Positions 3,001 to 32,444 of a stretch of 64,000 bases of DNA are shown here, one piece after another. The notes below the pieces were generated by a model. That model was not told where the DNA came from. It searched no databases and saw nothing but the letters and a program-made list of their open reading frames with translations. The number at the start of each line of letters is the position of its first letter. Positions within the stretch are counted from its first letter, which is position 1. The translations under genes and the position numbers were made by a program. Source of the stretch: a virus (lineage: Duplodnaviria > Caudoviricetes); the IMG/VR virus record IMGVR_UViG_3300044305_003112, positions 1-64,000 of that record. One strand, written 5' to 3'.

Positions 3001-6000
3001 CATTTTCTGAAAATTTCTACACCAATTTTCTATTGATGAATAATTTTACGCACAGTATAAATTTTCCATTAGAAGACATAACAGATAGAAGTATAGTAGC
3101 ACATCCTATTAGTGCCTCGTGGTGGAGATCTCGATCTCTTGCTATAAAGAATTATCCTGAAAATTCCTTCCACCAAACATGGGTGGATAATATTGATACT
3201 ACTGAAGGAATAGTTCCAAGAATTCAAGAAGATGAAAAAGAATTTTATGATGGAGAGTATAGTGGATCTACTTTAGTAGCTGAAGATGGAGAAATGAATA
3301 ATGGATGTGAAATAAAAGTATATAAAGCAATGGATAGTAGGTATCACATTGAAGCTATTAATTATGTACCTAAAACATTATATTATGCTACTATGTCTTG
3401 GGTTGAAGGAACAAGAAGTGCGGGTTTAGAGCCAAATAATTATGCTCCTATTTCTAATCTTTATCCACCACATACTGCTAAATATGATTCATGGTCAAAA
3501 GCAACATCATCATATAATGTACCTTGGAGTGGAATGGATAGTGCATATCCAAATACTTTCGATAAAGGTGTTGTAATTTTCCACCATAGAGTTTCTTCAT
3601 CCTATGATGCAGGTGAAGGAAATAATGGTCAAATATTAGGACATAAAATTGACGCTATTCATTTCGATTGGAGTTTCTTTAGAAGTGAACCAGAATTATT
3701 TCCAATTAACACAGCAGATGGTAATGAATTAGACAATACAAAACCAACTACTATAACAAACTTTCCACAAAGTTCAACTGATCCAATGTCTTGGATTCAA
3801 TATTTAATTTATTTAAATGAAATTGAGGTAGAGAGTATAGTAGAATTTATGAGACTATGGGCAACATCAGGATTACAAGCTAAGTTTGGGTGTATGCCTG
3901 ATTTTGGTATACCTAATAATATAGATCCTTATCCATCAGAAAGTTGGTTTTATAATAACACAGGATCTTTAATTCCTGAAGGAGATAATGACACACTGCG
4001 TACTGCATTAAATTATGTAGGTGCTGAAGCATGGGATGTGCCATTTAATGTTATGAGAGAACTTAGATATGGAAGAAATGAACCTTATTTTAATATTTCT
4101 CTTAATGATAAAGATAATGTAATTCGAAATAACCCATCAGTAGATTCACAAAGTTATTATAACCCAAAATATAATGGCAATTATGATTGGGATGAATCAG
4201 GAGACGACCCAAATAGTATATCTGCTATATATCATGATGATCAACAAAAATTATATAACTATCAAATAACTAACACTACATTAAATGAATATAGTAGAGG
4301 AAGTATAATAGGTTTAAAAGGTTTAGCACGTTATGTGATGCTATTTGGTGAAAACAACCCAGAATTAGCAGGCATTGAAAGCCCTTCAATTGCTGAATAT
4401 GGTAGTAATTATTTAACAAAAACACCATATGAAGGTAATTTTGGAACATCTACAGCATGGCCTTTTTCTTCAACTGCTATGCCTGGATTTACCTGCCCTA
4501 TACCACCAGGAGGGTATAATACTCACAGTTTAGGTAGAGCTTTAATTTTCTCACAATCAGCAGGAGCTACTTGGTTTACTACTACTTTTGTATCTAAATC
4601 ACAAGATTTAAGAACATGGACAGCATCTGGAGCATCTACTCCTACGGTACCTAGGGGTTCAGCATCAGCAGATAGAACAAATACTATCCATATAAATTCA
4701 TTTGCAAGAGCATATAAATCATCATCACAATATCCTGTACCTGGGAAAGGAACAGCTTCGGTGTTTTTCTATCAACCTACTTTTACAGAAACTTCAAGTT
4801 TCCATAGAGCAATGCCATTTAGAATTAGAATATCATACCATTCATCTACAGGAGAAAATATGGCAGCTACTCTAAAACAAGATGGAAATTATGATGTTAA
4901 ATTTTTAATATCAATGAGTTATTATTTAACTGATGCTGGAGTAGGTGATAATCCTTTTCAATTTGGTTATGATCCTCTTAATAGTAAAAGAAGAAATATA
5001 TTTGACTCTTCAATAACAAGTATTTACCACTCAGAGACTAATCAAATAGAATTTAAACCATTAGCTGTAGTAGATCACACAACAGATGAATATTTAGAAT
5101 ATTTCTATGGAGATCCTGAATCACGAATATTTTTAGGAGCTGAACAATGGAAGTACGGAGAGAATTGGTCATCATCATTTTTATTTACAGGATCAGATGA
5201 AACAGCTATAGTGTTTGATCCATATTTTGAAGAGGCAGGATTTTACAACTCAGATTGTAATCCTACAATGAATAATGAAAATGAAAATAGATTAAATCCA
5301 CACTTATTTGATGTAGATTATAGTACAGATTTATCAGTTCCAGTTAATTTAGATTTAATAAATAAAAGATCAGCAATATTAGCTCAAGTACCAGCAAGTA
5401 ATTACACACAGCGAAGTTCTATAAATCCTAAATATAATGGTTGTAAATTATTAAGTGCAGATTATAATCACTTTACTTCAAAAACACAAGGAAAAAATGT
5501 TGTAACATTTTTAAATGGAGATACTGGATCGTGGGAAGGAGATAAATCATATGGTCCTTCAGCTGTTATAGATACTTCACCTATTTATATAGCTCATTTT
5601 AAACAAGCTATAGATAGTAGAGAAAGATTTGATACTATGACATTTAATATAGATTCTCTAATAGAAATCCCAGATACTGATATTATAGGAAAAAATCAAC
5701 AACCTTCTATTATAGGTGTTGATGGTAGTGGAGATAAATTATTTAATGTAAGTTCAACATTCCCAAAAGGAAGAGCACTAACTATAAACTTTAATGAACA
5801 AGAAAAAGAATTTTCTAGTCTTAATGGTCAAATAATAAACTATAGTTCATTACAAGTAGGAACAAATAAAATTTACAACCCAGCATCACAATTTCAAGTA
5901 ATAGCTTCAAATCAAATAAATCAATATGACACAACACCATCACAAGCTTTTAATGCACCACAGTGGATTACTTTAGAAGATCCTATATTAGAATTACCTC

Positions 6001-7523
6001 CTTCATCTCAATCATTAGATTCGGGTTACTCCAATTTAACTACAGGTAGTAATATGTTAATTTTAAAGGGATGTCCTATATATTTAAGAACAAGAGTTCC
6101 TGAGTATTTTGGACTATTAGGAGAAGTTGATATACATGGTCCTCATTTATCATTATTAAATACTTTAAATAAAAACATTAGAATGGGGGATATGTCGGGT
6201 TCATATAACAGAAATGTTACAGGATCTAGTTGGACTTACACAGGAAGTACTACATATCATAATACTGATTTAGGTTTTAGATCATCACAATTTCCACTTT
6301 ATACTACTGCTAATATAATATCAGGTAGTTATGGAAAAAATATAATGGGTTGGTATAATAAATGGTCTGTAGGTGAAACATTTGGAGCTTTCCAAGGATT
6401 TGTACTTTTTAGTAGATATTTTCAAAATACTTTTACATCTTTTGTTCCAACATATGAAAAAGAAAAAAAAGGAGTTACGTGGAGATTCAACCCAGCTTTA
6501 TCAGGTGTTCCAGAGTATGAAAACTTCCAACACGATATGTTAGTAGAAGAAGGTGATATAATAAGAGTTACATATGATTATTTACTAACAGCTAGTTCTG
6601 ATAATACTGTTGAAACTATTACACAAGATTTTGAAGTAATGGGTTATAATTTAGTACCACCTATATTATCAGGTTCTACTACAGTAAACCCAGGAGATGC
6701 TTTTACAAGTAATGTAGATTTTAGGTTAGAGCAAGGTTCACAACCTTGGACTAATCCAAATTCTGGATATAGAGGAAAAGGAACATACACAGGATATCAA
6801 TATGGTCAAGAATGTATGTTAACTTCTTTTGGAGGTCCGAATGCATCAGGAATATTATCACAATCATCAACATATAGAAGTGCTTCATTTACAGGTTATT
6901 ATCCTGATTTTTATGGACCAAGAGAAGATAAAATTACATTAGCTACATTTGGGGCATCTAAATTAGCAAGTGGTACTGTAATTAATGGAATAGGCCCATC
7001 AGATACTCCAGGACAGTATCAATGGTGTTTATCAACAAATCAAAGATTACTTGACTCAGGTTCAATATCTAAAGGAACAGCAGATCCTACAGTTTCAAGT
7101 GGAGCTGATTTTTCATCAATTTATGAAGCAACTGGATCAAATTATAATAGAGATTGTGCGGCATGGGCGTCAGGATCTATTGTAATGCATATGGGAAATG
7201 CATCAACTACATCTCTATTGAAAGAGCCAACACAAGTATGGATACCAGACCCAGGTTATATCTACGATAGATTAAGAGTAGTACCTGATCCAAAAACATT
7301 AAAAAAACCAATACCCGGTGGACATATTAAAAATTACACTATTTTTAGAAGAGTAAACGCAGATGATAGAGTAATAGTAGAAATTACCCCACCAACAGGT
7401 TCAAAAGGAATTGTAACTCCATCAGGAGATGGATTTTTAATACCTAATGATTTAACTGAAACACAGAAACGAAATGTTCAAACTGTTATAACATCATTAA
7501 AAGATAAAAATGCGTTTCAATAA
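12..7523 (+). CDS. Giant virion structural protein (baseplate wedge/fibre-like), probably 5'-truncated by the window edge
   Basis: 2503-aa ORF whose frame is open back to position 3 (CCT AAT ACA ATG). Ser/Thr/Gly-rich (TGS/SGS motifs), with a LamG-like segment (FSGSFQEFRYY). Lies directly upstream of baseplate-type genes. Confidence 0.6.
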   Translation: MLRISEFGGKNKKHNNDWDLWYNRYSKAYTTYDPNITTVDGKVKPSSSVIIPWRPLTANVYSSGGTESSSLNTNISVPDCIQFRFKTDRNIEPDTHYSESLLIKKYRIQNIEDECGGFAIRLERSMSQTASYSGSIKSTTADPYYEYGTLKLLISGSTQEGATPEHLYTSSGIYLPFYNKDWWSVQVQRKTNLSASVNNQLNEFEIFVGQKGYEGNDDNRIKWLGSSSITMPNNIISASMNAAWNRVRTNDNLFLYIPYYSNVILGGLYQPGGYNIIGNWSESSNNPTYNANIIGDPFSGSFQEFRYYRRAISQSQFFDYVMNPRSIEGLRGNFTGSNSSFDLLSFRIPLGNELEYQSQKIFTPSGTTFTTGFSWGIFGTDRLIPFNQPTLPNVGYNSTAARYKGFLGSVHPSSVGYVGPLYTSSFLFYSKNTPEVGAIGTASLTSSNYWVLTNFGEKISTSYPNAWSHFTSSLLKPNDEVVYLDQPSAGIRNRNSNKIAVADSESYGEVLSSMRSIYQDYPQNRPYNENTNNLEVGFSFQNEINDEIISAMGHGVISDIVGDADEIYGTAATASYDRYPRLTRIAEDYFKKYSGTGQYQVGTYSTTDPNNPGNPWSYRPKLREQEVDYNRLIQFYETSLFKAIKNYVPARTSLSTGIIIKPHLLERNSVKLASLTSKTTMAITPETGSIDGRFDVPGTPQGFQSPIINQDLTITSSIKVEEFSGGVSDDMFNKLAQNNYIDADEIVNFSKPGVYSGEVYPTSSVHQNPTASVNIPSFYTGSNKIYSGSFLYLQGLDNNLVYEPQFFTSFDHPFVPGVNWLAQYWIPLGGKMLDPYKFPATSSVINQSLYRITEVVYNQFGEPKLSGSGTFPNTPAGYVGKPTPIAYTNGQISSSTDLYDLSAAYTGSITNTSKHPLATNFHLRFMTAFSTGGTITQDISASILLTSSFNRILGRDSYVLPCAAGASPYIYENTFDEFILYPNESFMVVAAASQSVPFSENFYTNFLLMNNFTHSINFPLEDITDRSIVAHPISASWWRSRSLAIKNYPENSFHQTWVDNIDTTEGIVPRIQEDEKEFYDGEYSGSTLVAEDGEMNNGCEIKVYKAMDSRYHIEAINYVPKTLYYATMSWVEGTRSAGLEPNNYAPISNLYPPHTAKYDSWSKATSSYNVPWSGMDSAYPNTFDKGVVIFHHRVSSSYDAGEGNNGQILGHKIDAIHFDWSFFRSEPELFPINTADGNELDNTKPTTITNFPQSSTDPMSWIQYLIYLNEIEVESIVEFMRLWATSGLQAKFGCMPDFGIPNNIDPYPSESWFYNNTGSLIPEGDNDTLRTALNYVGAEAWDVPFNVMRELRYGRNEPYFNISLNDKDNVIRNNPSVDSQSYYNPKYNGNYDWDESGDDPNSISAIYHDDQQKLYNYQITNTTLNEYSRGSIIGLKGLARYVMLFGENNPELAGIESPSIAEYGSNYLTKTPYEGNFGTSTAWPFSSTAMPGFTCPIPPGGYNTHSLGRALIFSQSAGATWFTTTFVSKSQDLRTWTASGASTPTVPRGSASADRTNTIHINSFARAYKSSSQYPVPGKGTASVFFYQPTFTETSSFHRAMPFRIRISYHSSTGENMAATLKQDGNYDVKFLISMSYYLTDAGVGDNPFQFGYDPLNSKRRNIFDSSITSIYHSETNQIEFKPLAVVDHTTDEYLEYFYGDPESRIFLGAEQWKYGENWSSSFLFTGSDETAIVFDPYFEEAGFYNSDCNPTMNNENENRLNPHLFDVDYSTDLSVPVNLDLINKRSAILAQVPASNYTQRSSINPKYNGCKLLSADYNHFTSKTQGKNVVTFLNGDTGSWEGDKSYGPSAVIDTSPIYIAHFKQAIDSRERFDTMTFNIDSLIEIPDTDIIGKNQQPSIIGVDGSGDKLFNVSSTFPKGRALTINFNEQEKEFSSLNGQIINYSSLQVGTNKIYNPASQFQVIASNQINQYDTTPSQAFNAPQWITLEDPILELPPSSQSLDSGYSNLTTGSNMLILKGCPIYLRTRVPEYFGLLGEVDIHGPHLSLLNTLNKNIRMGDMSGSYNRNVTGSSWTYTGSTTYHNTDLGFRSSQFPLYTTANIISGSYGKNIMGWYNKWSVGETFGAFQGFVLFSRYFQNTFTSFVPTYEKEKKGVTWRFNPALSGVPEYENFQHDMLVEEGDIIRVTYDYLLTASSDNTVETITQDFEVMGYNLVPPILSGSTTVNPGDAFTSNVDFRLEQGSQPWTNPNSGYRGKGTYTGYQYGQECMLTSFGGPNASGILSQSSTYRSASFTGYYPDFYGPREDKITLATFGASKLASGTVINGIGPSDTPGQYQWCLSTNQRLLDSGSISKGTADPTVSSGADFSSIYEATGSNYNRDCAAWASGSIVMHMGNASTTSLLKEPTQVWIPDPGYIYDRLRVVPDPKTLKKPIPGGHIKNYTIFRRVNADDRVIVEITPPTGSKGIVTPSGDGFLIPNDLTETQKRNVQTVITSLKDKNAFQ

Positions 7524-10634: not shown

Positions 10635-11090
10635 ATGAGTTGGACCTATAAAGGAAATAAAATTAAATCAATTAATGATTTCGGTAAAGATATTATGGGG
10701 TTTGTATACTGTACAACTCACATACCTTCCGGTAAAAGTTATATTGGTAAAAAATTTTTAGTACATACTCAAAAAAGAAAATTAGCTAAAAAAGATTTAA
10801 AAGTATATGAAGGAGCAAAAGGAAGACCACCTAAATATAAGTTAGTCTCAAAAGAATCAGATTGGAAAACATATTATGGTTCCAATAAATACCTTCTAGA
10901 ATTATTAAAAACAGAAGATAAAAGTAATTTCCAAAGAGAAATACTTCATTTATGTACAAGTAAAAAAAGATTAACTTATTATGAAATGAAATATCAATTT
11001 ATTCATGAAGTTTTAGAAAGACCAGATGAATTTTTTAATGATAACATATTAGGTAAGTTTTTTACACGTGACTTTGGAGATCCAAAATAA
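10635..11090 (+). CDS. GIY-YIG family nuclease
   Basis: GFVYCTTHIPSGKSYIGKK (GIY-YIG variant), YYGS, and downstream E and N residues (YYEMK, FFNDNI). Confidence 0.8.
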   Translation: MSWTYKGNKIKSINDFGKDIMGFVYCTTHIPSGKSYIGKKFLVHTQKRKLAKKDLKVYEGAKGRPPKYKLVSKESDWKTYYGSNKYLLELLKTEDKSNFQREILHLCTSKKRLTYYEMKYQFIHEVLERPDEFFNDNILGKFFTRDFGDPK

Positions 11091-12806: not shown

Positions 12807-12815
12807 TATTTATAA
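12806..12815 (+). promoter_or_regulatory. Late-promoter-like motif ATATTTATAA
   Basis: Upstream of the kinase gene at 12828. Confidence 0.65.
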
Positions 12816-12827
12816 CAAAATTGTATT

Positions 12828-13628
12828 ATGATAAGTTTAACCCAATTATTAAGTGAAGTAGAAAGTGGACCAAAAGCTATAATTTTAGCAGGAGCACCCG
12901 GTGCTGGTAAAGGTTATATTTTAAAAGGATTAGATTTAGGAGGATTAAAAATATTAAATATAGATGATATTTATATTCAAAATTTAAAAAATGCAAATGT
13001 ATCTTTAAATTTAAAAAAATCTTCACCTGAAGAAAGAAGTCTATCAGCCAAAGCAATGGCAGCAGCTAATAAAGAATTTAAAGGTAATGTTGCTTCTACA
13101 ATTGAAAATAAAGAATCATTCATATTAGATGGCACAGGCGCTTCATATAATCAAACTGTTAAATTAAAAAATGAATTAGAAGAAGCAGGATATAATGTAT
13201 TTATGCTTTATGTTTATACTGATTTAGAGCGTTCATTAAAACAAAATCAAGATAGATTTGAAAAATCAGGTGGTAAAGATAGAAGTTTAGCCCCAGCTAT
13301 AGTAATGCGTACATGGAATTCAGTAACTAAAAATCATAGTCCTTATAAAGAATTATTTGGTAATAATTTTGTTTCAGTTGCTAATACTTTAGAAGATGAA
13401 AAAATGGATAATTTAGAAGATATAATAAAAACCTATTTAGATCCTTTTAAACCTCAAAATACAAAACCTAAAGATGAAAAAGCTAAAGCAAGATCTGCTA
13501 AATCAAAAGCAGAATTAGAAGCAGATTTAAAATTATTATTATCTGACGAAGGGGTAAAAGATATTATAAACACATCAGTATCAAGGGAAGAAGCACAATC
13601 AAAAATAAAGACATTTTTAACTAGATGA
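12828..13628 (+). CDS. P-loop kinase (zeta-toxin/AAA_33-like)
   Basis: AIILAGAPGAGKG Walker A, NIDD, FILDGTG, and R...NQDR lid-like motif. Confidence 0.75.
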   Translation: MISLTQLLSEVESGPKAIILAGAPGAGKGYILKGLDLGGLKILNIDDIYIQNLKNANVSLNLKKSSPEERSLSAKAMAAANKEFKGNVASTIENKESFILDGTGASYNQTVKLKNELEEAGYNVFMLYVYTDLERSLKQNQDRFEKSGGKDRSLAPAIVMRTWNSVTKNHSPYKELFGNNFVSVANTLEDEKMDNLEDIIKTYLDPFKPQNTKPKDEKAKARSAKSKAELEADLKLLLSDEGVKDIINTSVSREEAQSKIKTFLTR

Positions 13629-15631
13629 ATGAACTAACAAAAGAATTAGTAAGAGGATTAATGGAAGTAGATGATACTAAAGTAGTTGCTCTTTATGGAG
13701 GTGGTTTTAAACCCCCCATAAGAGGACACTTTAATGTTGTTAAACAAGCTTTAGCTGAATACCCTGAAATTGATGAATTCCGAATTTTTGTTGGAGGATT
13801 AGAAAGAGATGGAATAGATCAAACAGAATCTTTATTAATTTGGGACATTTATAAAAATTATTTACCTCAAAAAGTAAAAATTATACCAGCTAAAAATCCA
13901 ATTGGAGATATTTATAGAGCTCCTAAAAATGATCCTGAATTAGAATTTTATTGGGTTATAGGAAAAAGAGAAGGAGAGGAAGATGATGAATATGATATAA
14001 AAACAAGATCAGCCCCATTAATAACAAACCCAGATAAATACCCAAATTTAAATTTAAAAACTATAACAACATCAGACTCAAATATGAGAGCTAGAAATGC
14101 TAGAAAAGCTTTAACATTAGATTCTGATGAGTTTAAAAATTTTTTACCTCATGAATTAAGTGATGAAGATAAAGAAGAAGTATATAATATAGCATCTACA
14201 AAATTAATAAATGAAAATATTACTAAAAATCAATTAGATTCAATTGAATCATATGCTGATGGTTTATTTAATAAATTAGGAATTGACATCGATTTTACAA
14301 AACATTTTTTTGATAGATTAAATGACATTAGAAATAAAAAACCAATATCAGTAGCTGAATTAATAGGTATATTTAAAAAATTATATAAAAAACACGGTAA
14401 ACCTTTATCAAAAACTGAAGATGATTTAGAAGCTGTTGTAAAAGATTTTAATAAAAATATTAATATTCCTTTTGTAATTGATGTAGATCAAAATGGAATA
14501 GATATGACTGCAAAAACTATAATGAGGAAACAAGATTTTCAAACATCTAATCCAGTTATCCCTTTAGAAGAAAATGCAACATATTCAGATTATATAGATT
14601 ATAAAGGAAAAATAAAAGATTTAACTAAACATATGATAAAAATGGGTTTAAATATTTTACCCCTACCTAAAGTAATATTTTATCATAGTGAAAAATCAAA
14701 TGCTAAAAATTTTTTCGGAAAAACTGCATATTATAACCCTGAAACTAAAACTATAGTATTATATACTGAAGGTAGACATCCAAAAGATATAGTAAGATCA
14801 TTTTCTCATGAAATGATTCATCACATACAAAATTTAGAAGATAGATTAGGTGATATAATGACTACAAATACTAATGAAGATGATGAATTAGATGCAATAG
14901 AAAGAGAAGCATATCAAGAAGGGAATATGATTTTTAGAAATTGGACAGATTCTATTGATGGTGAAATTACTACTGACATAGAAGAAGGAGGTTCATTAAT
15001 TCCTATTAAAGTCGAAAAAACAAAAAAGGATCCATTTGGACTAAATGCTTATGCTTTAGAATTAGCTAAAGGTTTAGAAGAAACTATTGATTTACCTAAC
15101 CATGATGGTAAAGCGGCTCCCTATGGATCAGGTTATAAACCTATAACAGAAGATGAAAAATATACTATATATTCTGATATGGATGGTGTAATAGCTGATT
15201 TTGATACTAGATTTAAACAATTCTCAGATGGAATACCACCATCAGATTATGTAGATAAATTTGGTTTAGAAAAATTTTGGGAATTAATTGATGACGAAGT
15301 AGGAGTTAGATTTTGGACAGGAATTGAATGGATGCCAGGAAGCCAAGAATATTGGGATTACATTAAAAAATACAATCCCATATTACTATCAGCTCCCTCA
15401 CGTAATAATGAATCTAGATTAGGAAAAAGAGTATGGGCAAAACGTAATTTACCGGGTGTTAAATTAATTTTAGCTTTTGCTAATAATAAAAAAAATTATG
15501 CTAATGAAAATTCAATATTAATTGATGATAGAGAAAAAAACATCAATCAATGGAAAGAAGCAGGTGGAATAGGAATTTTACATACTAGTGTAGCTTCAAC
15601 TATTGCTCAATTAAAAGAATTAGGTTTATGA
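13625..15631 (+). CDS. Multidomain fusion: HIGH-type nucleotidyltransferase + putative RNase-like domain + HEXXH metallopeptidase-like + HAD 5'-nucleotidase
   Basis: VALYGGGFKPPIRGH (HIGH-like), FTKHFFDRLND, FSHEMIHHIQ, and YSDMDGVIADF...LIDDREKN (HAD, NT5C-like). Confidence 0.75.
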   Translation: MNELTKELVRGLMEVDDTKVVALYGGGFKPPIRGHFNVVKQALAEYPEIDEFRIFVGGLERDGIDQTESLLIWDIYKNYLPQKVKIIPAKNPIGDIYRAPKNDPELEFYWVIGKREGEEDDEYDIKTRSAPLITNPDKYPNLNLKTITTSDSNMRARNARKALTLDSDEFKNFLPHELSDEDKEEVYNIASTKLINENITKNQLDSIESYADGLFNKLGIDIDFTKHFFDRLNDIRNKKPISVAELIGIFKKLYKKHGKPLSKTEDDLEAVVKDFNKNINIPFVIDVDQNGIDMTAKTIMRKQDFQTSNPVIPLEENATYSDYIDYKGKIKDLTKHMIKMGLNILPLPKVIFYHSEKSNAKNFFGKTAYYNPETKTIVLYTEGRHPKDIVRSFSHEMIHHIQNLEDRLGDIMTTNTNEDDELDAIEREAYQEGNMIFRNWTDSIDGEITTDIEEGGSLIPIKVEKTKKDPFGLNAYALELAKGLEETIDLPNHDGKAAPYGSGYKPITEDEKYTIYSDMDGVIADFDTRFKQFSDGIPPSDYVDKFGLEKFWELIDDEVGVRFWTGIEWMPGSQEYWDYIKKYNPILLSAPSRNNESRLGKRVWAKRNLPGVKLILAFANNKKNYANENSILIDDREKNINQWKEAGGIGILHTSVASTIAQLKELGL

Positions 15632-16203
15632 AAGAAAATATTTTAAAAAAAGAATGGTCAAAAAGAGATGTTAAACGTGCTCGTAATATTCTATCAGGAA
15701 AAACTAACGAACGTACTATTAAAGGAGTAGGTTATTCTAAAAAAAATGAATTCCACAAAGAAGGAGATATTTGGGAAGAAGATGGTAGAAAATGGACTAT
15801 TAAAAATGGATTAAAACAAAACATTACTAAATATGATAAAGTAAAAAAAATGGTAAGAACACCTTTATTTTGTCCTAGTTGTAATAAGTTAATGAAACAT
15901 AAATTTGATCCTGATTTTTTTAGAGTTCATAAAACATGTTATGAATGTTATTTATATTTTGAATCTGAATTAAAGCAAAGGGGCGTTTGGGAAGAATATG
16001 AAAAAAATATACATAATGGAGAATTAAATGCTTTTATAAATGAATTTAAAAATTGGTTTGAAGATCAATTAAATAATGAAACAAATAAATCATTTATTAC
16101 TGAACAAGGTGATGTAGAAAATTGGAAAGGTGGAATAAATAAATCTAGAGCTTTAGAAAGTTTAGAAAAAACAATAAAATATTTAGAAAATTTAAAGAAA
16201 TAA
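15628..16203 (+). CDS. Hypothetical protein with zinc-finger motif
   Basis: CPSC...CYEC, 191 aa. ATGA overlap with the upstream gene. Confidence 0.6.
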   Translation: MKENILKKEWSKRDVKRARNILSGKTNERTIKGVGYSKKNEFHKEGDIWEEDGRKWTIKNGLKQNITKYDKVKKMVRTPLFCPSCNKLMKHKFDPDFFRVHKTCYECYLYFESELKQRGVWEEYEKNIHNGELNAFINEFKNWFEDQLNNETNKSFITEQGDVENWKGGINKSRALESLEKTIKYLENLKK

Positions 16204-16213
16204 AGAAAAATAT

Positions 16214-16223
16214 ATATTTATAA
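16214..16223 (+). promoter_or_regulatory. Late-promoter-like motif ATATTTATAA
   Basis: Upstream of 16239. Confidence 0.65.
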
Positions 16224-16238
16224 AATATAACTATAATT

Positions 16239-16874
16239 ATGAGTGATTTTAATATACATAAATGGAATAAAAGTAGATATTTAAAAGAAGGAAATATCAA
16301 AGAAGATAATTATAAGTTAGTTAATAGTATCTCAAATATAGCAGATATGTATTCATATGGTGAAATATTAGATGCATTAGAGTCATTTTACATCAAAAAT
16401 GATGAACAAAAATCTGCTGAAATAGCAAGAAAACATGCTAAAGAATTTAGAGAATTTTTAGGCCCAGATGAAGAAGAAGATTTATATAATGAATTAAGTA
16501 ATATAGGCATAAATGAAAAAAAAAACTTAAATGAAAGTAGTAAACACCAATTAAATCAATTAAGTTGGGATTTTATATTAAGAGCACTGCCTGGATTTGG
16601 AGAAGAATGGGATGAACTTCATTTAGAAACACCAACTGACGCTGATAGAGTCGTCAGCAATGAGCGTAGCTTTGATATGTGGTTAGAAGATATGGTTAAA
16701 ATGGGATATGGAAAAGAAGAAGTAATTATAGACCCTGAAGGTAAAGATTGGATGGGTAGAGTTAATATACGAAGTGGAGGTGTTAAAATTGTAGGTGATA
16801 AATTTACTAAAGATAAACAAGAATATATTGATGGTAAAGCAGCTACATTAAAAAGTTGGGGTACTACTAATTAA
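16239..16874 (+). CDS. Putative internal head protein
   Basis: Late promoter upstream. YLKE, IKE, INE and LNE protease-type sites. Confidence 0.5.
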   Translation: MSDFNIHKWNKSRYLKEGNIKEDNYKLVNSISNIADMYSYGEILDALESFYIKNDEQKSAEIARKHAKEFREFLGPDEEEDLYNELSNIGINEKKNLNESSKHQLNQLSWDFILRALPGFGEEWDELHLETPTDADRVVSNERSFDMWLEDMVKMGYGKEEVIIDPEGKDWMGRVNIRSGGVKIVGDKFTKDKQEYIDGKAATLKSWGTTN

Positions 16875-16879
16875 AAAAT

Positions 16880-17527
16880 ATGAAATTTTCATCAACTAAA
16901 TTACTAAAAGAAAATAAAATAACTCCTAATCAAGAAGATGAGTTAATGGATATGATGTTATCATACATTAAAGATCCCGATGATGCTGAAAAAAAAATAG
17001 AAGATTACTTATATGGTAATTTAAGTAATGATTATACCCCATTTGATATAAGAACCTTTGGAAATATCCCCTCAGATTTTGAAGATGAAATTATTGCATG
17101 GACAAAAAAACATAATTTAAACGAAGCAGAAGAAGGAGAAAATGATAATAGAGTATCTCAAGCTGAATTAATTCTTCCTAGAGGTAAAAAAGTTGTTTTA
17201 CAAGCAGAAGAAAAAGATTATAAAAGAGGATTAATAGTAGAACTAACAGAAGAAGGAGGATATAAAATAAATTACTGGTATGGTGATGATGTTAAAGTAT
17301 ACCCCGCTGAAGTATTAGTTGATGGAGAATCTATTAAACCTGATGCCAATGAAGTTTATATAAAATTTCATCCTGAATTAGAAGAAGGTACTTGTGGGTA
17401 TGATAAAACAGGAAATATTGACCCAGAAAACACAACATTTAAAACCCCGGGTGGGTTAAAAAGCATACCTGGTGAAAAAAGAACAGAATTAATTAAAAAA
17501 ATAATGGAAAAACTTAAATCTAAATAG
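16880..17527 (+). CDS. Putative internal head protein
   Basis: LLKE, LNE and LEE sites separate small modules. Confidence 0.5.
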   Translation: MKFSSTKLLKENKITPNQEDELMDMMLSYIKDPDDAEKKIEDYLYGNLSNDYTPFDIRTFGNIPSDFEDEIIAWTKKHNLNEAEEGENDNRVSQAELILPRGKKVVLQAEEKDYKRGLIVELTEEGGYKINYWYGDDVKVYPAEVLVDGESIKPDANEVYIKFHPELEEGTCGYDKTGNIDPENTTFKTPGGLKSIPGEKRTELIKKIMEKLKSK

Positions 17528-17535
17528 ATTTTAAC

Positions 17536-17548
17536 ATATTTATAAATA
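17536..17548 (+). promoter_or_regulatory. Late-promoter-like motif ATATTTATAAATA
   Basis: Upstream of 17562. Confidence 0.7.
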
Positions 17549-17561
17549 AAAATATACAATC

Positions 17562-18419
17562 ATGAGTGAATTTAACTATAAAGATTATTTAAAAAACAAT
17601 CCTCTTTTAAAAAATGAAAAAGAGTCTTTAAAAGAAGAAGTTAAAAAGTCTTCATCTAAGATAACAATATCTGAATTAAAGAAAAAAATTAAAGAAAAAA
17701 TACTAAAAGAATCTGATGCTGTGTCTTGGAAATATAATAATAATCCAACAAAAGGAGGCACTTTAGATTTAGACCCTAAAAAAGTAGGAAAGTCAACAGT
17801 ACAAGAAGACGAAGAAGTAGAAGATACTGAAAATGTTGATGTTAAAGATACTGAAAACGTTGATGTTGACACAGAAACAGACATTGATGTAACAGATGAT
17901 GAATCTGTAGCAGTTGATGATGAATCATCAGAAGCAGAAACAAATATCGATGTTAAAATGCCTGGTGAAGTAAATAAAAATGTTGAATTAATTCAAGGTT
18001 TACTAACCAAAGCTCAACAAACAGCTGAAAAATTAGGTGATGCTAAATTATTAGATCAAATTGGAAATACTATTACTTATTTTACAAGAGCTCATGTTGT
18101 AAAATCTAATGTAGAAGAATCACTTGAAGAAGCAGTTGTTGACTTTGAATTACCCGCACCAATAGCAACTAAAGCAAATCAAATGGTTAAAGATGTTGGT
18201 GATATGGCTAGAATAATATTAGCATTAATAGATCAAATATCAGCAAAAGAACAAGTAAATTTTGATAAAAATGCATTCTTTAAAATAGCTATACAAAAAT
18301 TAACTGATTTAGAACAAAAAGACCAAACAAAATCAGGAGAAGAAGAAGAAGTTGAAACAAAAGAAACAGAAACAGAAGAAACAGAAACAGTAACGTCATC
18401 AGCAACAGAAAAGGTATAA
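17562..18419 (+). CDS. Acidic putative internal head protein
   Basis: Late promoter upstream. SLKE, ILKE, VQE and SLEE sites; D/E/T-rich linkers. Confidence 0.5.
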   Translation: MSEFNYKDYLKNNPLLKNEKESLKEEVKKSSSKITISELKKKIKEKILKESDAVSWKYNNNPTKGGTLDLDPKKVGKSTVQEDEEVEDTENVDVKDTENVDVDTETDIDVTDDESVAVDDESSEAETNIDVKMPGEVNKNVELIQGLLTKAQQTAEKLGDAKLLDQIGNTITYFTRAHVVKSNVEESLEEAVVDFELPAPIATKANQMVKDVGDMARIILALIDQISAKEQVNFDKNAFFKIAIQKLTDLEQKDQTKSGEEEEVETKETETEETETVTSSATEKV

Positions 18420-18420
18420 A

Positions 18421-19269
18421 ATGTTAAAAGAGCGTAAACTTACCAAAGCAGAACTTGATAAGCGTGAGGACATCATCATGAATATGAAGAAAAATAAACG
18501 CGATTTAGTTAAAAAATATGGTAAGGACGCTGAAGCAGTAATGTATGGTAGAGCTACTAATATAGCTAAAAAAACAACAGAATCAATGGCAATTAATAAT
18601 CGATTAAGAGAAATGGTCAAAACAGCTTTATCAACTCCTAAAGTAAAAGAAGCAATAGGTAAGGAAGATGGTGAAGTAGATGATGATCTATCAGTTGGGG
18701 TTTATACTGAAAACCCACCTAAAAAGAAAAAAACTAATGAAGATTTACAATTAGATGAAAATGAACAATTAGTTCAATCTTGTTATATATCAGAAACTAT
18801 AAATGAAGGCCATAAAGGAAAATTAGATTTAGAAGGAAAAATGGCTAGAAAGCAATTAGCAAAAATAGCTAAATATGCTCAACATTTATTTCATATGTTA
18901 GATAATAAATCTCAATTAGAAAGTTGGGTTCAAGCTAAATTAACAAAAGCATCAGATTATATGAGCTCTGTTAAGCATTATTTAGAAGGTGAAGCATTAA
19001 CATCAGCACCTCCTGTTATGAATGAAGATGAAGCTATTAAAGATATAGAAGGAAGAGCGCTAAACATTGGTGATGTAGTAAAATGCCCAGATAATAATGA
19101 GTACCAATGTATGTATTCATATTCTGAAAAATTACCATTTTTATCACCATATGATGGTAAAAAACCTGATTTAATGAATAAAATGTATTTTAAAGATAAA
19201 CCAGAATTTGCTAAAAGATTAGAAAAAGTAAAAGATTATTCTCAAACAAAAGGTGGATTTATTAAGTAA
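18421..19269 (+). CDS. Putative internal head protein, modular
   Basis: MLKE, VKE, ISE, INE and MNE sites flank modules such as EGKMARKQL...LESWVQAKLTKASDY. Confidence 0.5.
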   Translation: MLKERKLTKAELDKREDIIMNMKKNKRDLVKKYGKDAEAVMYGRATNIAKKTTESMAINNRLREMVKTALSTPKVKEAIGKEDGEVDDDLSVGVYTENPPKKKKTNEDLQLDENEQLVQSCYISETINEGHKGKLDLEGKMARKQLAKIAKYAQHLFHMLDNKSQLESWVQAKLTKASDYMSSVKHYLEGEALTSAPPVMNEDEAIKDIEGRALNIGDVVKCPDNNEYQCMYSYSEKLPFLSPYDGKKPDLMNKMYFKDKPEFAKRLEKVKDYSQTKGGFIK

Positions 19270-19271
19270 AT

Positions 19272-19742
19272 ATGACACGACAAGAGTTAAAAGACAAACT
19301 ACGCTTGTTAATAAAACAAGTTTACCCTGCTGTAATGCAATCCGAAACAGCAGTATTAGAGTATGATGAATTAACAAAATTCCCGGAACTTAAAGCAGTA
19401 ATTATCGATCTTTTAACTTATGAGTTCGATAATTTTTTAGCATCTATAGATTGGGTTGCACCTCGTCCTAGTACATTTAGAATTAATTTAAAAAATGGTG
19501 AACTTTTTTATCTAATTTATAATGGTAGAAGTTGGGTAGCTCAAGTAGAAGGGAAAAATTATTATTTATTAAATCTTCCTGAAGAAGAACAAGCAGCTAT
19601 GGCAATAGCTAGAATATTAAGATATGGCTCTCCTGATGCTGAAACTGAAGAAGTAGAGACTACAGAAACAGAAACTGAAGAAACAGAAACAGAAGAAACA
19701 ACTGAAGAACCAGCAGAAGAGCCAGCAGCAGAAGAAGCATAA
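19272..19742 (+). CDS. Hypothetical phage protein with acidic tail
   Basis: 156 aa. MTRQELKDKLRLLIK leader; C-terminal TE/EEPA repeats. Confidence 0.55.
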   Translation: MTRQELKDKLRLLIKQVYPAVMQSETAVLEYDELTKFPELKAVIIDLLTYEFDNFLASIDWVAPRPSTFRINLKNGELFYLIYNGRSWVAQVEGKNYYLLNLPEEEQAAMAIARILRYGSPDAETEEVETTETETEETETEETTEEPAEEPAAEEA

Positions 19743-20830
19743 TGGATTCAATAACTACATTTTTAAATAAAATATCTTATAAATTTCCAAAAGGTTACCC
19801 GGATATGAATAACCCAAAGGATAAAAATTTATTATTTGAAATAATAACAGGTGTTGTAAAAGAAAATGAAGAAATAGATATTGATGAAGTAAGAAGTGAA
19901 ATAGAAAGTTTAATAAAAAACATATCTGATCCTGAAGAATTAAAACAAATAGCTAAATATGCTAAAAACGTAGGTTTTGGGAATTCAATGAAGAAACATT
20001 TAGCTGATAAAAATTTAAGTTCAAAAGATATTTTATTTTTTCAATCACTTTTATCTGAATTAGGTAAGACAGGAGATTTTGCAAAATTATCTGAAAATCC
20101 ACCTACATTTGATTTAACTAAAAATAATTACTTTGACCAAATACCAGGATTTGACAATACAGATTTAAAATCTTTATATAGTGATATGAAAGATTCTATT
20201 CAAGGAACAGTTTCATTAGGACCTGGAGAAGCATTTTTATCTGTATTTTTTAATAATGTTAAAAAAGCAGAATCAAAGGGGGACTTAAATATAGGAGGTA
20301 AAGAAGTTGAATTAAAATCTAGAACAGGAGCATCAGGGGCAATGGTTGCTCCTAAATATGTTGTAAGAGGTAAAGCGGATGATATAATAAAAGAAATGGA
20401 AAAATTAATTAATACTTTTGATTTAGAAGATGTTCAAAAAGAAGAATTAAAAAATTTAATTAGACCTAAAGGAACCTCTTGGCCTTATAAAATTGATAAA
20501 TTATTTAAATCTGCTTTAGAATTAGGTATAGATAACAAAAAATTAACAAAAGATTTATCAGATGAAATTAGTTCTTGGTATAAAAATAAATTACCAATGA
20601 ATTTTGAGTCATATTTTACAGATAATGAATTTGAAGCTAAAAAGTTTATCGATAATTTAGCTACAACTTTAGCAAAAGATTATTTTGAAGAACATGGGTT
20701 TGATGGTTTTATGATATCTGATAATGTAGGAAATTTTAAATATTATGATGGAGGTGATTTTATAGATGCTATTGGTAATGATATAATAGTTTCTAACCCT
20801 TCTGACTTAGTTCCTAGAATAAAAGTATAA
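19742..20830 (+). CDS. Hypothetical protein with restriction-endonuclease-like motif
   Basis: GPGEAFL...GDLNIGGKEVELKS fits a PD-(D/E)XK core; leader ends in VVKE. Confidence 0.5.
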   Translation: MDSITTFLNKISYKFPKGYPDMNNPKDKNLLFEIITGVVKENEEIDIDEVRSEIESLIKNISDPEELKQIAKYAKNVGFGNSMKKHLADKNLSSKDILFFQSLLSELGKTGDFAKLSENPPTFDLTKNNYFDQIPGFDNTDLKSLYSDMKDSIQGTVSLGPGEAFLSVFFNNVKKAESKGDLNIGGKEVELKSRTGASGAMVAPKYVVRGKADDIIKEMEKLINTFDLEDVQKEELKNLIRPKGTSWPYKIDKLFKSALELGIDNKKLTKDLSDEISSWYKNKLPMNFESYFTDNEFEAKKFIDNLATTLAKDYFEEHGFDGFMISDNVGNFKYYDGGDFIDAIGNDIIVSNPSDLVPRIKV

Positions 20831-20836
20831 TTTTTA

Positions 20837-20846
20837 ATATGTATAA
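20837..20846 (+). promoter_or_regulatory. Late-promoter-like variant ATATGTATAA
   Basis: Upstream of 20849. Confidence 0.5.
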
Positions 20847-20848
20847 TC

Positions 20849-21946
20849 ATGAGCAAAAACACAGGTAAAAAAGATTGCAATTGTGGATGTGGTGGGTGTA
20901 AAACTAAATCTATAGGTCCTATATTGAGGGAAAATAAAGTATTTAGTACTCCATTGTCTAATGATTTAAAATTTCATATAGACAATAATATACCGTTAAA
21001 CGAAACAAAACATCGTGTGGGTTCTAAAAAATTTAAAAAATTAATTAATGAAGCTTCTGCATTATACTCACGTTTTATTTTAGATTTAAATAAAAAAGAT
21101 GAAAAGATAATAAAAGAAGGAGTTGGATTTGGAAATAAAATGGGGGGTAATAATTTTACACCACAAAAAGAAATACCTAGAGATAGATCTAGAAAAGATA
21201 ATATAGGCAGATTAAAACCAAATATGTCAACACCAGGAATAAAATCATTATCAGAAAATGAAAAATTAATTCAATCTTGTTATATAAAAGAAGATAAAGA
21301 TTATTATGAAAAAGCAAAAGATTTAGAGGGAAAAAAACAATCAATAATAGATCAACTAGAAAAATTATTAGACTCTTTAACACCCCCAACATCAGATAAT
21401 TTAGAAGCAAGACAAGGTTTAAAAGCAGCTTTAAAAAGTAATAATGTAGTAATGATGAAAAAAGCTTTAGATCATTGGAGAGAAAAATTAGATCCTAGAT
21501 CAAGTTTTACAGATGATGATTGGGAAAATTTTTATGCAGATTATGATTTACCTGAAGGTAAAATAAAAGAATCACAAGATTTAGAAACAGAAGCTAAACA
21601 ATATTTTTTAAAAAAGTTTATGGATGGTGAAATTAAAAAATTACCTGATCTTAAAGATGTTAAAGCAGCTTATATGAAATTAAAATTAAAAGGAGAGGTA
21701 AATGAAGCTGAAGAAGATGAAAAAGAAGGAAAAAAAGTTACTGTTGATGGTGAACCATTTAAAAAACATAACATAAAAAATCTTCAAGAAATGGACCCAG
21801 TAAAATGGGATTTACAAAATGGAATAGCAGCTCAATGGGTTCCTGACAAAGTAGGTCATACAGCTGATGGAGATATAACTGATGATCCTGGAGATGGATA
21901 TGATACTAACAATAAAGATACTATAAACGAAAAATTAATCAATTAA
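20849..21946 (+). CDS. Putative internal head protein, modular
   Basis: CNCGCGGC leader. ILRE, IIKE, LSE, IKE, VNE and LQE sites. Confidence 0.5.
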   Translation: MSKNTGKKDCNCGCGGCKTKSIGPILRENKVFSTPLSNDLKFHIDNNIPLNETKHRVGSKKFKKLINEASALYSRFILDLNKKDEKIIKEGVGFGNKMGGNNFTPQKEIPRDRSRKDNIGRLKPNMSTPGIKSLSENEKLIQSCYIKEDKDYYEKAKDLEGKKQSIIDQLEKLLDSLTPPTSDNLEARQGLKAALKSNNVVMMKKALDHWREKLDPRSSFTDDDWENFYADYDLPEGKIKESQDLETEAKQYFLKKFMDGEIKKLPDLKDVKAAYMKLKLKGEVNEAEEDEKEGKKVTVDGEPFKKHNIKNLQEMDPVKWDLQNGIAAQWVPDKVGHTADGDITDDPGDGYDTNNKDTINEKLIN

Positions 21947-21960
21947 TAAAAAATAAAAAA

Positions 21961-22047
21961 ATGAAAAAATTTATATGTAATTTAATCTGTATTTTAACTT
22001 TTAATAAAGTTTGTATAGGTTGGTGCAACCTAAAATGTTGCAAGTAA
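21961..22047 (+). CDS. Small Cys-rich peptide (28 aa), not in the ORF track
   Basis: ATG after an A-rich tract. Translates to MKKFICNLICILTFNKVCIGWCNLKCCK followed by TAA, then a terminator. Confidence 0.5.
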   Translation: MKKFICNLICILTFNKVCIGWCNLKCCK

Positions 22048-22092
22048 AAATCTGATTCATAGCCAGATACCCTTTATGGGTTTTTTATATAG

Positions 22093-22131
22093 AGAGCTGT
22101 GGCCTCATTTTGGAGCCACGGCTCTTTTTTT
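22093..22131 (+). terminator. Rho-independent terminator
   Basis: AGAGCTGTGGC...GCCACGGCTCT stem followed by a T tract. Confidence 0.85.
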
Positions 22132-22159
22132 GTATATTTAATTAATAAAAAATCTAAAG

Positions 22160-23446
22160 ATGAAACAAATAGTAATTATAGGAGCAGGAGTAGCAGGTGT
22201 TAATGCTGCTACAAAATTAGTTGATAACAATTATAAAGGTAAAATTACCATAATTGATATGGGTAATGATCCCTTTAAACGTAAACCTGAAGAAGTAATG
22301 ACGGGTTTTATGGGAGCCGGAGGTTGGTCAGATGGTAAATTGACATATCATACTTCTATTGGTGGTCATTTATCAAAATATTGTGGTGAAGATAAAGCTA
22401 TGGAGTTAATGGATCAAGTTATTAATAATTTTAGAAGATTTCACCCTAAACCTGAAGTAATACAATGTTCACATCCTGTAGAAGAACCAGAATTTATTAA
22501 ACCTTATTTTGGTTTGCGATTATTTCCTGTATGGCATATAGGAACTGATTATCTACATGAAATTGGTAAAAATTGGTATACATATTTAACTGATAACGGT
22601 GTAGAATTTTTATGGAATACTAAAGTAGATGATATTAATTTTGATACTAATTTAGTTTATGGAGAAAACATTCCATCAGGAAGAATATATTATGATAAAT
22701 TAATATTTGGAGTAGGTAAATCAGGGATTGATTTTGGAAAACAATTAGCTGAAAAATACGAATTACCAACAGAACCAAAACCAGTACAAATAGGAGTTAG
22801 ATTTGAAGCACCACAAAAACATTTTCAAAAATTAATTGACATATCATATGATTTTAAGTTATATAAAAAGTTTGATAATGTAAGTTTAAGAACATTTTGT
22901 ACAAACAATAATGCTGCTTATGTTGCTTTAGAAAAAACTTATGGTGATCATTCTTATAATGGACATGCTAAAAAAGATGAAGCATATAGAAATAACATGA
23001 CTAATTTTGGTATATTAATGGAAATTAGAGGTATAGATAAACCATTTGATTGGTCAAGAGAAGCAGTTAAAAAATTACAATGTAGTGGAACAGGCACATA
23101 TTATTCCCCAGGTAATAGATTACCATCTAAAACATCAGAAGGTGATTTTGTTAGATGTGTTGTAGTAGAAAATATGGAACCTTTATTTGAATCATTAGGA
23201 GAAGAAAATGCTCAATATATAGAAGATTTCATTACAGAAATGCAAATAGTATTCCCAACATTAAAAGATGATTGGGGTATTTATATGCCTGAAGTAAAAT
23301 ACCTATCACCTGAACCTTTAGTAAATTATGAAGATTTAAGTCTTACTAGATTTTCTGATGTCTATTTTGTAGGTGATGCGTTATCAGCAAGAGGTATAAC
23401 AGTATCTGGGGCACAAGGTACTTATGTAGCTGAAAGTATATTATGA
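22160..23446 (+). CDS. FAD-dependent oxidoreductase
   Basis: IIGAGVAG Rossmann motif, GAGGWSDGK, and YFVGD...GITVSGAQG C-terminal FAD motif. Confidence 0.85.
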   Translation: MKQIVIIGAGVAGVNAATKLVDNNYKGKITIIDMGNDPFKRKPEEVMTGFMGAGGWSDGKLTYHTSIGGHLSKYCGEDKAMELMDQVINNFRRFHPKPEVIQCSHPVEEPEFIKPYFGLRLFPVWHIGTDYLHEIGKNWYTYLTDNGVEFLWNTKVDDINFDTNLVYGENIPSGRIYYDKLIFGVGKSGIDFGKQLAEKYELPTEPKPVQIGVRFEAPQKHFQKLIDISYDFKLYKKFDNVSLRTFCTNNNAAYVALEKTYGDHSYNGHAKKDEAYRNNMTNFGILMEIRGIDKPFDWSREAVKKLQCSGTGTYYSPGNRLPSKTSEGDFVRCVVVENMEPLFESLGEENAQYIEDFITEMQIVFPTLKDDWGIYMPEVKYLSPEPLVNYEDLSLTRFSDVYFVGDALSARGITVSGAQGTYVAESIL

Positions 23447-24356: not shown

Positions 24357-24368
24357 TATTTATAAATA
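24356..24368 (+). promoter_or_regulatory. Late-promoter-like motif ATATTTATAAATA
   Basis: Upstream of 24379. Confidence 0.7.
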
Positions 24369-24378
24369 AAAATATCTC

Positions 24379-31838: not shown

Positions 31839-32444
31839 ATGAAAAAAATTTTAATAGAAACATTACCATTTGTACCTTCTAAAATTTCATTAACAGAAGG
31901 TAAAAAATCAGAAAGAGGAAATCCTATAGTTGAGGGTATTTTAGCTACTTGTGAAGTTAAAAATGGAAATGGAAGATATTATTCAAAAGATCTTTGGCAA
32001 AGAGAAATGGATAAATATCAAGAAGTAATAAATGATAATAGAGCAGTAGGAGAATTAGATCATCCTGAATCATCTGTTGTTAATTTAAAAAATGTTTCAC
32101 ATAACATTACTGATACTTGGTGGGATGGAGACAATGTAATGGGTAAAATAGAAATACTTCCTACTCCATCAGGTAATATTTTAAAATCACTTATTGATAG
32201 TGGTATAACAGTGGGTGTTTCTTCAAGAGGAATGGGTTCATTAAAACCAATGGGGGAAGTTCAAGAAGTACAAGATGATTTTGAATTATTATGTTGGGAT
32301 TTTGTTTCAACTCCTTCAAACCCAGGTTCATATATGCAATTAGTAAAAGAAGGTCTTGATTTTTCTTCAAAAAACCAATATGAAAAATTAAATTCTATTA
32401 TTTATGAAATCCTTTGCTCAAAAGGAAGTTGTCCAATTTCATAA
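31839..32444 (+). CDS. Prohead protease (T4 gp21-like)
   Basis: NGNGRYYS, GELDHPE (catalytic His), VGVSSRGMGS (catalytic Ser), WDFVSTPS. Confidence 0.93.
   Translation: MKKILIETLPFVPSKISLTEGKKSERGNPIVEGILATCEVKNGNGRYYSKDLWQREMDKYQEVINDNRAVGELDHPESSVVNLKNVSHNITDTWWDGDNVMGKIEILPTPSGNILKSLIDSGITVGVSSRGMGSLKPMGEVQEVQDDFELLCWDFVSTPSNPGSYMQLVKEGLDFSSKNQYEKLNSIIYEILCSKGSCPIS

Follow-up and report, generated by a model that had tools for sequence, protein, structure and literature searches.

The 64,000-nucleotide (nt) window analysed here, positions 1 to 64,000 of the IMG/VR virus record IMGVR_UViG_3300044305_003112, contains an open reading frame (ORF; 13625..15631, on the plus strand like all of its segments) that encodes a chain of 668 amino acids (aa), in which a short leader, four globular domains and two peptide cassettes are divided by the tripeptide L/I-x-E. 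Judging from its sequence and modelled structure, this protein is probably, though by no means certainly, a polyprotein which the phage loads into its head and which the prohead protease cleaves at the L/I-x-E linkers. A first-pass annotation of the same DNA had described it as a four-enzyme polyprotein with a protease-type site in every linker. That observation is confirmed; L/I-x-E is present at the end of the leader and at all domain boundaries. The interpretation of the chain as a viral-style polyprotein is partly supported by the evidence given below.

All the motifs on which the first-pass annotation relied were found in the right order and place: GLME (residues 11-14), GGGFKPPIRGH (25-35), KLINE (193-197), FTKHFFDRLND (224-234), PLEE (313-316), SHEMIHH (394-400), DIEE (451-454), GLEE (483-486), PITE (506-509), DMDGV (518-522) and IDD (633-635). 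The chain begins with a leader (residues 1-14, MNELTKELVRGLME; 13625..13666), a predicted capsid-targeting propeptide ending in L-M-E. It is followed by the domains D1 (residues 15-197; 13667..14215), D2 (198-316; 14216..14572) and D3 (317-454; 14573..14986), by two recurring cassettes, mini-module 1 (455-486, …KDPFGLNAYALELAKGLEE; 14987..15082) and mini-module 2 (487-509, TIDLPNHDGKAAPYGSGYKPITE, ending in I-T-E; 15083..15151), and by D4 (510-668 plus the stop codon; 15152..15631). An AlphaFold2 model derived from a 37-sequence family alignment has four confident domains (20-191, 201-300, 326-444 and 512-668), and its predicted TM-score (pTM) of 0.39 implies no fixed packing between them, so that the expectation of four independently folding domains with disordered linkers was borne out. 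The per-residue confidence (pLDDT) falls below 50 only at residues 13-15, 303-320 and 446-510. All of these segments carry motifs: LME 12-14 (Glu included), PLEE, DIEE, GLEE and PITE. KLINE lies within the low-confidence stretch between D1 and D2, where block 191-200 has a mean pLDDT of 59. The leader itself is modelled as a helix (residues 2-12) at low confidence before the drop at 13-15, and mini-module 1, a cassette of about 20 aa, has pLDDT values of 27-40.

The total number of [LI]xE tripeptides in the polyprotein equals chance (9 against 9.6 ± 2.7 in shuffled sequences). As to their placement, six of the nine stand at the leader end or at domain boundaries, in or at the edge of the low-confidence linkers. 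The family to which the protein belongs is large, with 8,492 representatives at 50% identity (E <= 1e-3), and conservation was counted over 151 representatives at that identity level. A copy of [LIV]xE comes after D2 in 21 of 24 cases, after D3 in 88 of 115, after mini-module 1 (within 18 aa) in 79 of 87 and after mini-module 2 in all 25, as against 11-23% for random windows; by rates so far above those of random windows, the linker glutamates are indeed conserved in homologues. In an all-vs-all BLAST comparison of the same representatives, 44-48% of homology breakpoints lie no more than 6 aa from the Glu of an [LIV]xE (random positions, 19%; seven control motifs, 10-33%), and it is exactly at this Glu that the ends of homologous blocks are most frequent. 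In the cores of the four domains [LIV]xE occurs at 0.63 times the composition-based expectation, with a z of -11.6 that is inflated by shared ancestry, which leaves the contrast of Glu with Asp or Gln unaffected. Outside the cores it reaches 1.31 times expectation, and within them [LIV]xD, [LIV]xK and [LIV]xQ are found at 1.21-1.52 times theirs. Such avoidance of the cores is what one would expect if the motif were cut wherever it is exposed and were hence excluded from folded domains.

The same junctions are the places at which the family varies. Mapping of the four segments onto 271 members revealed at least 38 architectures, with D1 and D3 as a near-constant core and D2 and D4 as optional parts. 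Further modules, ranging from about 70 to over 900 aa, occur as insertions at those L/I/V-x-E junctions, among them ART-PolyVal, Tox-ART-HYD1, ParB_N, Zeta_toxin, Maf, NTP_transf_2, plastocyanin, DUF6934 and DUF5661; ART-PolyVal, Tox-ART-HYD1 and ParB_N gave one match each among 50 diverse family members, all of them relatives and not the window copy. Mini-module 1 turns up at various positions in the family, with L-x-E on both flanks in relatives. In Flavobacterium phage immuto, the nearest cultured relative (57.5% identity between major capsid proteins, MCPs), the nucleotidase D4 is a separate gene, gp087, with a leader of its own (MKKVMGNLADLLLE) just before the HAD core. In two-module proteins consisting of DUF5661 and D2, the motif follows the leader, separates the modules and recurs behind D2. 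Homologues, then, rearrange, drop or separate these domains but preserve the L/I/V-x-E junctions, the behaviour for which the first-pass annotation had proposed to look. A few further features of individual relatives deserve mention. One frequently inserted module starts with GRYD... right after an L-Q-E-like site and ends in ...ALSLP-LFE (for example in the C-terminal part of immuto gp088 and in family member P0273); because it contains a second HExxH (RHEIEH/RHELEH), many polyproteins carry two distinct zincin-like modules. The immuto gp088 protein (L001:5134-7857) has an additional N-terminal region of about 300 aa before D1. P0014 (1159 aa) includes a plastocyanin/azurin-type copper-binding module (PF00127, E 3.6e-16), an odd cargo for an injected protein, and the Pol-beta-type nucleotidyltransferase family NTP_transf_2 of Pfam was detected in one of the 50 diverse members scanned.

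The window's leader has the build of a T4 propeptide, a short N-terminal stretch with an L/I-x-E end. Leaders of about 14-20 aa are present in 96 of the 127 representatives with an N-terminal D1, [LIV]xE being found in 95 of these 96, and their consensus is M-N-x-L-T-K-x-L-x-x-G-L-L-x-E. Proteins consisting of D2 alone have the leader motif immediately before the domain; one of them, Paraglaciecola phage GD1 gp42, starts with MKSFEQYIEE, the same in pattern as the T4 capsid targeting sequence (CTS) MKTYQEFIAE (PMC8442874). In T4, the propeptides of internal proteins (IPs) are 10-19 aa long and constitute the CTS, with processing determinants at CTS residues 8 and 10 (PMC9026906). The notion of the leader as an obligatory signal was rejected, as family member P0123 begins directly with the first strand and is preceded by in-frame stops. 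Internal mini-modules are no commoner in leaderless members than in the others (58% vs 64%). The record of phage phiM12, in which the neighbour gp157 and not gp159 is annotated as a virion structural protein, lends no support either way.

A gene for a T4 gp21-type prohead protease (Peptidase_S77) was found at 31839..32444 on the plus strand (PF03420, 109 bits, above the cut-off; phrog_207, E 7e-60). We propose this protease as the enzyme that may process the polyprotein. In T4, gp21 cuts after Glu at L/I-x-E, and Alt is cut at ITE-6 and LTE-619 (PMC5694885). A gp21-type protease is also encoded by immuto, GD1 and phiM12, and by seven of ten long IMG/VR contigs with a polyprotein gene, always about 18-25 kb downstream of that gene; the other three contigs are uninformative because they end 0-5 kb past the polyprotein gene, so that all seven informative ones carry it. 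The N-terminus of the window protease (31839-31859) reads MKKILIE and echoes LIE-9 near the N-terminus of T4 gp21, which has been discussed as a possible autocleavage site (PMC9026906).

A link to virions comes from the cyanophages. D1 is homologous over its whole length to a T4-like cyanophage protein described as 'cytidylyltransferase/NMNAT-like' (hhalign 89.6%, E 1.9e-6, 167 columns), and a tblastn search with D1 matches cyanophage S-SKS1 with an E-value of 4e-5. The family profile matches a single place in cyanophage S-SCSM1 (E 8e-9), ORF91 (QFG06348.1), the product of which starts with MKSFLQFLKE, a T4 CTS pattern. ORF91 was found by mass spectrometry (MS) in CsCl-purified virions, amid a run of MS-detected virion proteins, and two further cyanophages with NMNAT-like virion proteins are cited in the same study (PMC9602691). 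Since ORF91 was detected in virions, proteins of the D1 type that bear leaders of this kind can belong to the virion, a statement that does not extend to the window's polyprotein. The cyanophage class (S-SCSM1 ORF91 and others including Syn9 gp184) shares with D1 the unusual F-(K/N)-P-P-T-x-G-H signature. It differs in being about 410-430 aa long, in having a long low-complexity spacer and another C-terminal domain, in its identity to D1 of only about 20-25%, and in having no zincin, D2 or HAD module.

We infer packaging, cuts, injection and the host role of each enzyme from these observations and picture them as follows. The polyprotein would be made together with the virion genes, and its short N-terminal leader would direct it into the assembling prohead core. 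The gp21-type serine protease would then cut after the Glu of L/I-x-E in the disordered linkers, removing the leader and setting free four globular proteins, namely the nucleotidyltransferase-fold domain, D2, the zincin peptidase and the 5'(3')-deoxyribonucleotidase, as well as two peptides of about 20-30 aa. These products would stay in the head, enter the host with the DNA and act before any phage gene expression. A bolder generalisation seems to us evenly balanced between being right and wrong: that across a very large set of uncultured T4-like marine phages the prohead protease also serves as the maturase of polyproteins; that L-x-E-bounded cassettes (peptides of about 20 aa as well as enzymes and effector domains) move freely between polyproteins and solo leader-bearing genes, giving every phage a combinatorial injected 'first-minute' toolkit; and that the motif has been purged from domain interiors like restriction sites from phage genomes.

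Several findings weigh against head packaging and processing by gp21. The gene adjoins those for primase and exonuclease and lies outside the head module, the protease being encoded about 16 kb further downstream. The promoter-like element A-TATTTATA-A, which stands ahead of the polyprotein operon (see below), is also found ahead of the 7598 operon with primase and exonuclease, and because of this late timing of the polyprotein operon is not established. Of the 127 representatives with an N-terminal D1, 31 are truly leaderless, including the syntenic P0123. The MCP of the window phage shows no depletion of the motif (6 observed vs 4.8 expected), and the z-values for core avoidance are inflated as stated above. 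The authors of the S-SCSM1 proteome noted that non-structural proteins could be carry-over (PMC9602691). Finally, if gp21 does all the cutting, the near-universal zincin has no special explanation.

This last point leads to an alternative in which the packaged or injected chain, a polyvalent protein, is cut by its own zincin D3 (before packaging, in the head or after injection) and not by the prohead protease. HExxH is present in 148 of the 151 representatives and D3 with an intact HExxH...E in about as many, the structural neighbours of D3 (SPRTN, Wss1, the C-terminal domain of ArdC and lethal factor) are those of the polyvalent-protein metallopeptidase (MPTase), and DdrB of phage P1 offers a precedent of proposed MPTase autoprocessing (PMC5512222). 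Even so, we consider cutting by D3 unlikely. The junction motif is the known specificity of a T4-type head protease, and the N-terminal stretches of the window's MCP, of its protease and of its scaffold-like proteins also end in it. L-x-E leaders are borne by solo cargo proteins that lack D3; in the complete genome of GD1 no D3 homolog was detectable, and the L-x-E leader in that phage cannot therefore depend on the zincin. Moreover, the D3-less members P0204 and P0265 retain their L-x-E junctions. D3 itself may be an effector or a participant in processing.

It is also rather improbable that the protein is simply a cytoplasmic enzyme with several domains that serves nucleotide or NAD metabolism (NadR-like), is expressed along with replication genes and stays unpackaged and uncut, its L-x-E tripeptides being common linker residues of an AT-rich, Glu/Leu/Ile-rich proteome. 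The gene does have primase, exonuclease and P-loop kinase genes as neighbours, RefSeq labels the immuto homologs NMNAT and 5'-3' deoxyribonucleotidase, phage NAD salvage enzymes of the NadR/NadM type are known (PMC9503650), and the overall motif count, as said, is that of chance. Against this, the cargo of relatives (ARTs, ParB, Zeta toxin, plastocyanin) would be senseless in a single metabolic enzyme. Nor would such an enzyme be expected to avoid the motif in its cores and concentrate it at junctions, unlike xD, xK and xQ, to have breakpoints that peak at the Glu, or to gain leaders on domains that have split off. The D1 homolog of S-SCSM1 is virion-associated, and the window's own D1 is without the conserved Thr and the SGT phosphate-binding motif.

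That the junction peptides are mainly recombination linkers for module exchange between phage genomes, the protein being packaged whole or never and the likeness to protease sites secondary, strikes us as a distinctly poor bet and is in any case compatible with head packaging and processing rather than exclusive of it: modules and the two cassettes of about 20 aa do recur at many positions in near-identical sequence, homology breakpoints coincide with linkers and the neighbouring genes 12828 and 16880 are fused as modules elsewhere, but the depletion of [LIV]xE and not of xD or xQ in cores, the same motif at the ends of solo-gene leaders and the restriction to phages with a gp21-type protease would all be left unexplained.

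The first-pass annotation knew of no described system with this architecture, which proved too strong a statement. Polyvalent proteins (PMC5512222) and the CTS-bearing, gp21-processed internal proteins of T4 are close precedents, and the architecture combines the former (Iyer et al. 2017) with the targeting and processing of the latter. Like the polyprotein, T4 IPI, IPII, IPIII and Alt have a short propeptide with L/I-x-E at its end, a conserved leader in front of hypervariable cargo and a protease of the gp21 type. The cargo of Alt, an ART, is enzymatic, and ART modules occur in the polyprotein family; the leader pattern of the T4 CTS is nearly identical in the relatives GD1 gp42 and S-SCSM1 ORF91. 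However, the T4 IPs are single small proteins with one cut, and Alt is trimmed at both ends, whereas the polyprotein comprises several unrelated enzyme domains and peptide cassettes with a site at each junction, a multi-domain form known from sequence. With sites at all its junctions, such a chain would make the head protease a polyprotein maturase. Also unlike the T4 IPs, about one quarter of the family members are leaderless.

Polyvalent proteins (PMC5512222) resemble the family in joining disparate domains in one chain around a zincin MPTase hub, in extreme mosaicism between close relatives and in a repertoire that includes ART-PolyVal, ParB_N and possibly a BECR-type RNase; both are predicted to be packaged and injected. 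The window's polyprotein, with its four unrelated folds, is multi-domain in the polyvalent sense, and because repertoire and zincin hub are shared, the family falls within the polyvalent-protein concept. Polyvalent proteins differ in mostly exceeding 2,000 aa, in their frequent linkage to MuF or portal and in the autoprocessing by MPTase proposed for them. Term searches of that study yielded neither a HIGH-type transferase hub nor a HAD nucleotidase, T4-type leaders or inter-domain L-x-E sites. In the giant phages phiKZ, 201phi2-1 and SPN3US, a gp21-related protease likewise cuts many head proteins after Glu, often at several sites (PMC5694885, PMC9026906). There, however, the cuts remove propeptides from single proteins, the motif is A/S-x-E and not L/I-x-E, and the release of several independent enzymes from one chain is not described. 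None of the papers returned by a literature search on polyproteins together with prohead proteases, ejection proteins or propeptides uses the word 'polyprotein'.

If processing by the prohead protease is real, tailed phages load their capsids with enzyme sets by a polyprotein strategy known from RNA viruses, and the cutting rule would allow the proteins injected by thousands of uncultured marine phages to be read off from their sequences alone. The recurrent NMNAT-like proteins among the virion proteins of cyanophages would be explained. The transferases, zincins, nucleotidases, ARTs, ParB proteins and kinases would become candidate early effectors against bacterial defence, and the leaders and linkers would offer natural modular tags for the packaging of foreign proteins into T4-like heads. 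The cultured carrier immuto makes the polyprotein idea directly testable.

The four domains differ in how firmly they can be assigned, and a Pfam search with the whole protein gave only sub-threshold matches. D1, which ends in KLINE, has a HIGH-superfamily (PPAT/NMNAT-like) nucleotidyltransferase fold: Foldseek matches it to PPAT with TM-scores of 0.76-0.79 (probability 1.0; 0.78-0.79 for the structures 1b6t and 8i8i) and to NaMNAT/NMNAT with 0.57-0.63, and hmmsearch against the PDB gives an E-value of 2e-4. The proposed nucleotidyltransferase identity holds for the fold, but the signatures are degenerate. Thr is the usual residue of the first signature (TxGH in 113 of 131 representatives, HxGH in 9, IxGH in 4), and here it is replaced by Ile, with the final Gly-His retained (PPIRGH). 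The second, ISxTxxR-type signature is absent, the sequence being RARNAR where relatives have SGTNAR (SGTxAR). With its Ser and Thr lost, activity of this D1 is doubtful or altered, and the domain may be inactive or changed in function. NMNAT specificity is putative in all family members.

D2, an α/β domain of about 100 aa that ends in PLEE, belongs to phrog_23027/14518, which are of unknown function, and in many phages is a stand-alone protein with its own leader. Its invariant residues are H227, R231, D234, R236, K297, T298 and R301, an H-x-x-D-R motif plus a K/T/R cluster. An RNase of the RegB/BECR type is only a lead: Pfam REGB_T4 matches three of 13 solo homologs below the cut-off (best E 3.3e-4) and nothing in the window's genome, and hhalign aligns D2 with T4 RegB over the HxxDR motif only (RegB residues 42-55), with a non-significant E-value of 0.23. 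A sequence-profile search of the PDB returned noise only, the ESM Atlas unnamed viral clusters and BFVD D2's own relatives, while the Foldseek and VIA lists obtained with a D2-D3 model were filled by D3 matches, none of which assigned D2.

D3 is a minimal zincin metallopeptidase (HEMIHH...E) with DIEE at its C-terminus, in agreement with the metalloprotease proposed from the HEXXH motif. The top 50 VIA matches are all zincins, with SPRTN (Z 7.9), Wss1 (7.6), ArdC (6.4) and lethal factor (6.4) among them; because Z-scores below 8 are moderate, the call draws on the consistency of this list together with the motif. H395, E396, H399, E426 and E428 are invariant or nearly so. D4 proved to be a HAD-superfamily 5'(3')-deoxyribonucleotidase of the NT5C type, in keeping with its annotation as a HAD nucleotidase: it matches phrog_2643 with an E-value of 3.7e-26 and the cdN/mdN structures 2i7d and 4yih with TM-scores of 0.62-0.65, and its catalytic motifs DMDGV and IDD are intact. 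The Pfam NT5C score is 17.9 bits against a cut-off of 24.8.

The window is part of a 73-kb viral record that is about 45% complete and has a GC content of about 30%. The source virus is a distant T4-like marine myovirus with low GC, and terminase, portal, prohead protease and MCP are all encoded in the window. The head module includes the portal (27199-29058) and the MCP (34085-35755). ORFs 48949 and 51453 were taken as putative sheaths and 53297 as a putative tube, partly from their N-termini. Two further ORFs of the head module, 29109-29969 and 32570-34051, are very rich in [LIV]xE (18 vs 6.9 and 21 vs 14.8 expected) and lack a PHROG function; like T4 gp22, they are probably components of the scaffold or core that the protease degrades.

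The polyprotein gene has the primase and exonuclease genes on one side and, on the other, a block of unknown genes that lies upstream of terminase. The start ATG shares nucleotides with the stop codon of the upstream gene (ATGA), a P-loop kinase-type gene (Zeta-toxin/AAA_33-like; 12828..13628, plus strand) with matches to phrog_12810 and to ATPase-type families. A syntenic homolog of this gene matches Pfam Zeta_toxin; its product has a leader of its own, MISLTQLLSE, and is the N-terminal fused module in family member P0261. Likewise, the domain encoded by the downstream gene 16880 recurs as a module in several members, P0123 and P0221 among them. The block from exonuclease to terminase (12828-24894) consists of genes of unknown function, several with short leaders ending in [LIV]xE (besides that of 12828, MKFSSTKLLKE in 16880 and MKKSQLKAAIKE..LNE in 24379). 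Since at least 12828 and 16880 occur fused as modules in the polyproteins of other phages, the block looks like a pool of solo cargo genes.

Gene 12828 opens the tightly coupled operon 12828-16203, which includes the polyprotein gene, and the promoter-like motif A-TATTTATA-A stands at 12807..12814 on the plus strand, 14 nt upstream of its ATG. The motif precedes 13 gene starts by 12-35 nt, each time in a short intergenic gap (sites at 7573, 12807, 16215, 17537, 24357, 27178, 29084, 38199, 46202, 48907, 53260, 53850 and 54938), including those of the portal (27199), of 29109, of the putative sheath 48949 and of the putative tube 53297; several copies read TATTTATAAATA. It is probably a phage promoter, related to but distinct from the T4 late promoter TATAAATA. 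The canonical TATAAATA is not enriched in the window (31 matches vs 24 ± 5.6 expected), and TATTTATA, which in the intergenic gaps is complement-like to it, does not separate late from other operons.

Two other ORFs of the window may be noted. ORF 12-7523, at the window start, encodes 2,503 aa with 28 [LIV]xE against 20.5 expected. The 151-aa ORF 10635-11090, between structural-like genes and primase, has as its top match phrog_447, a family that goes by the name 'NAD synthetase'. Homing-endonuclease PHROGs are among its other matches, and SegE_GIY-YIG of Pfam is found in the syntenic homolog. The ORF probably encodes a homing endonuclease of the GIY-YIG type, the name of the family being misleading.

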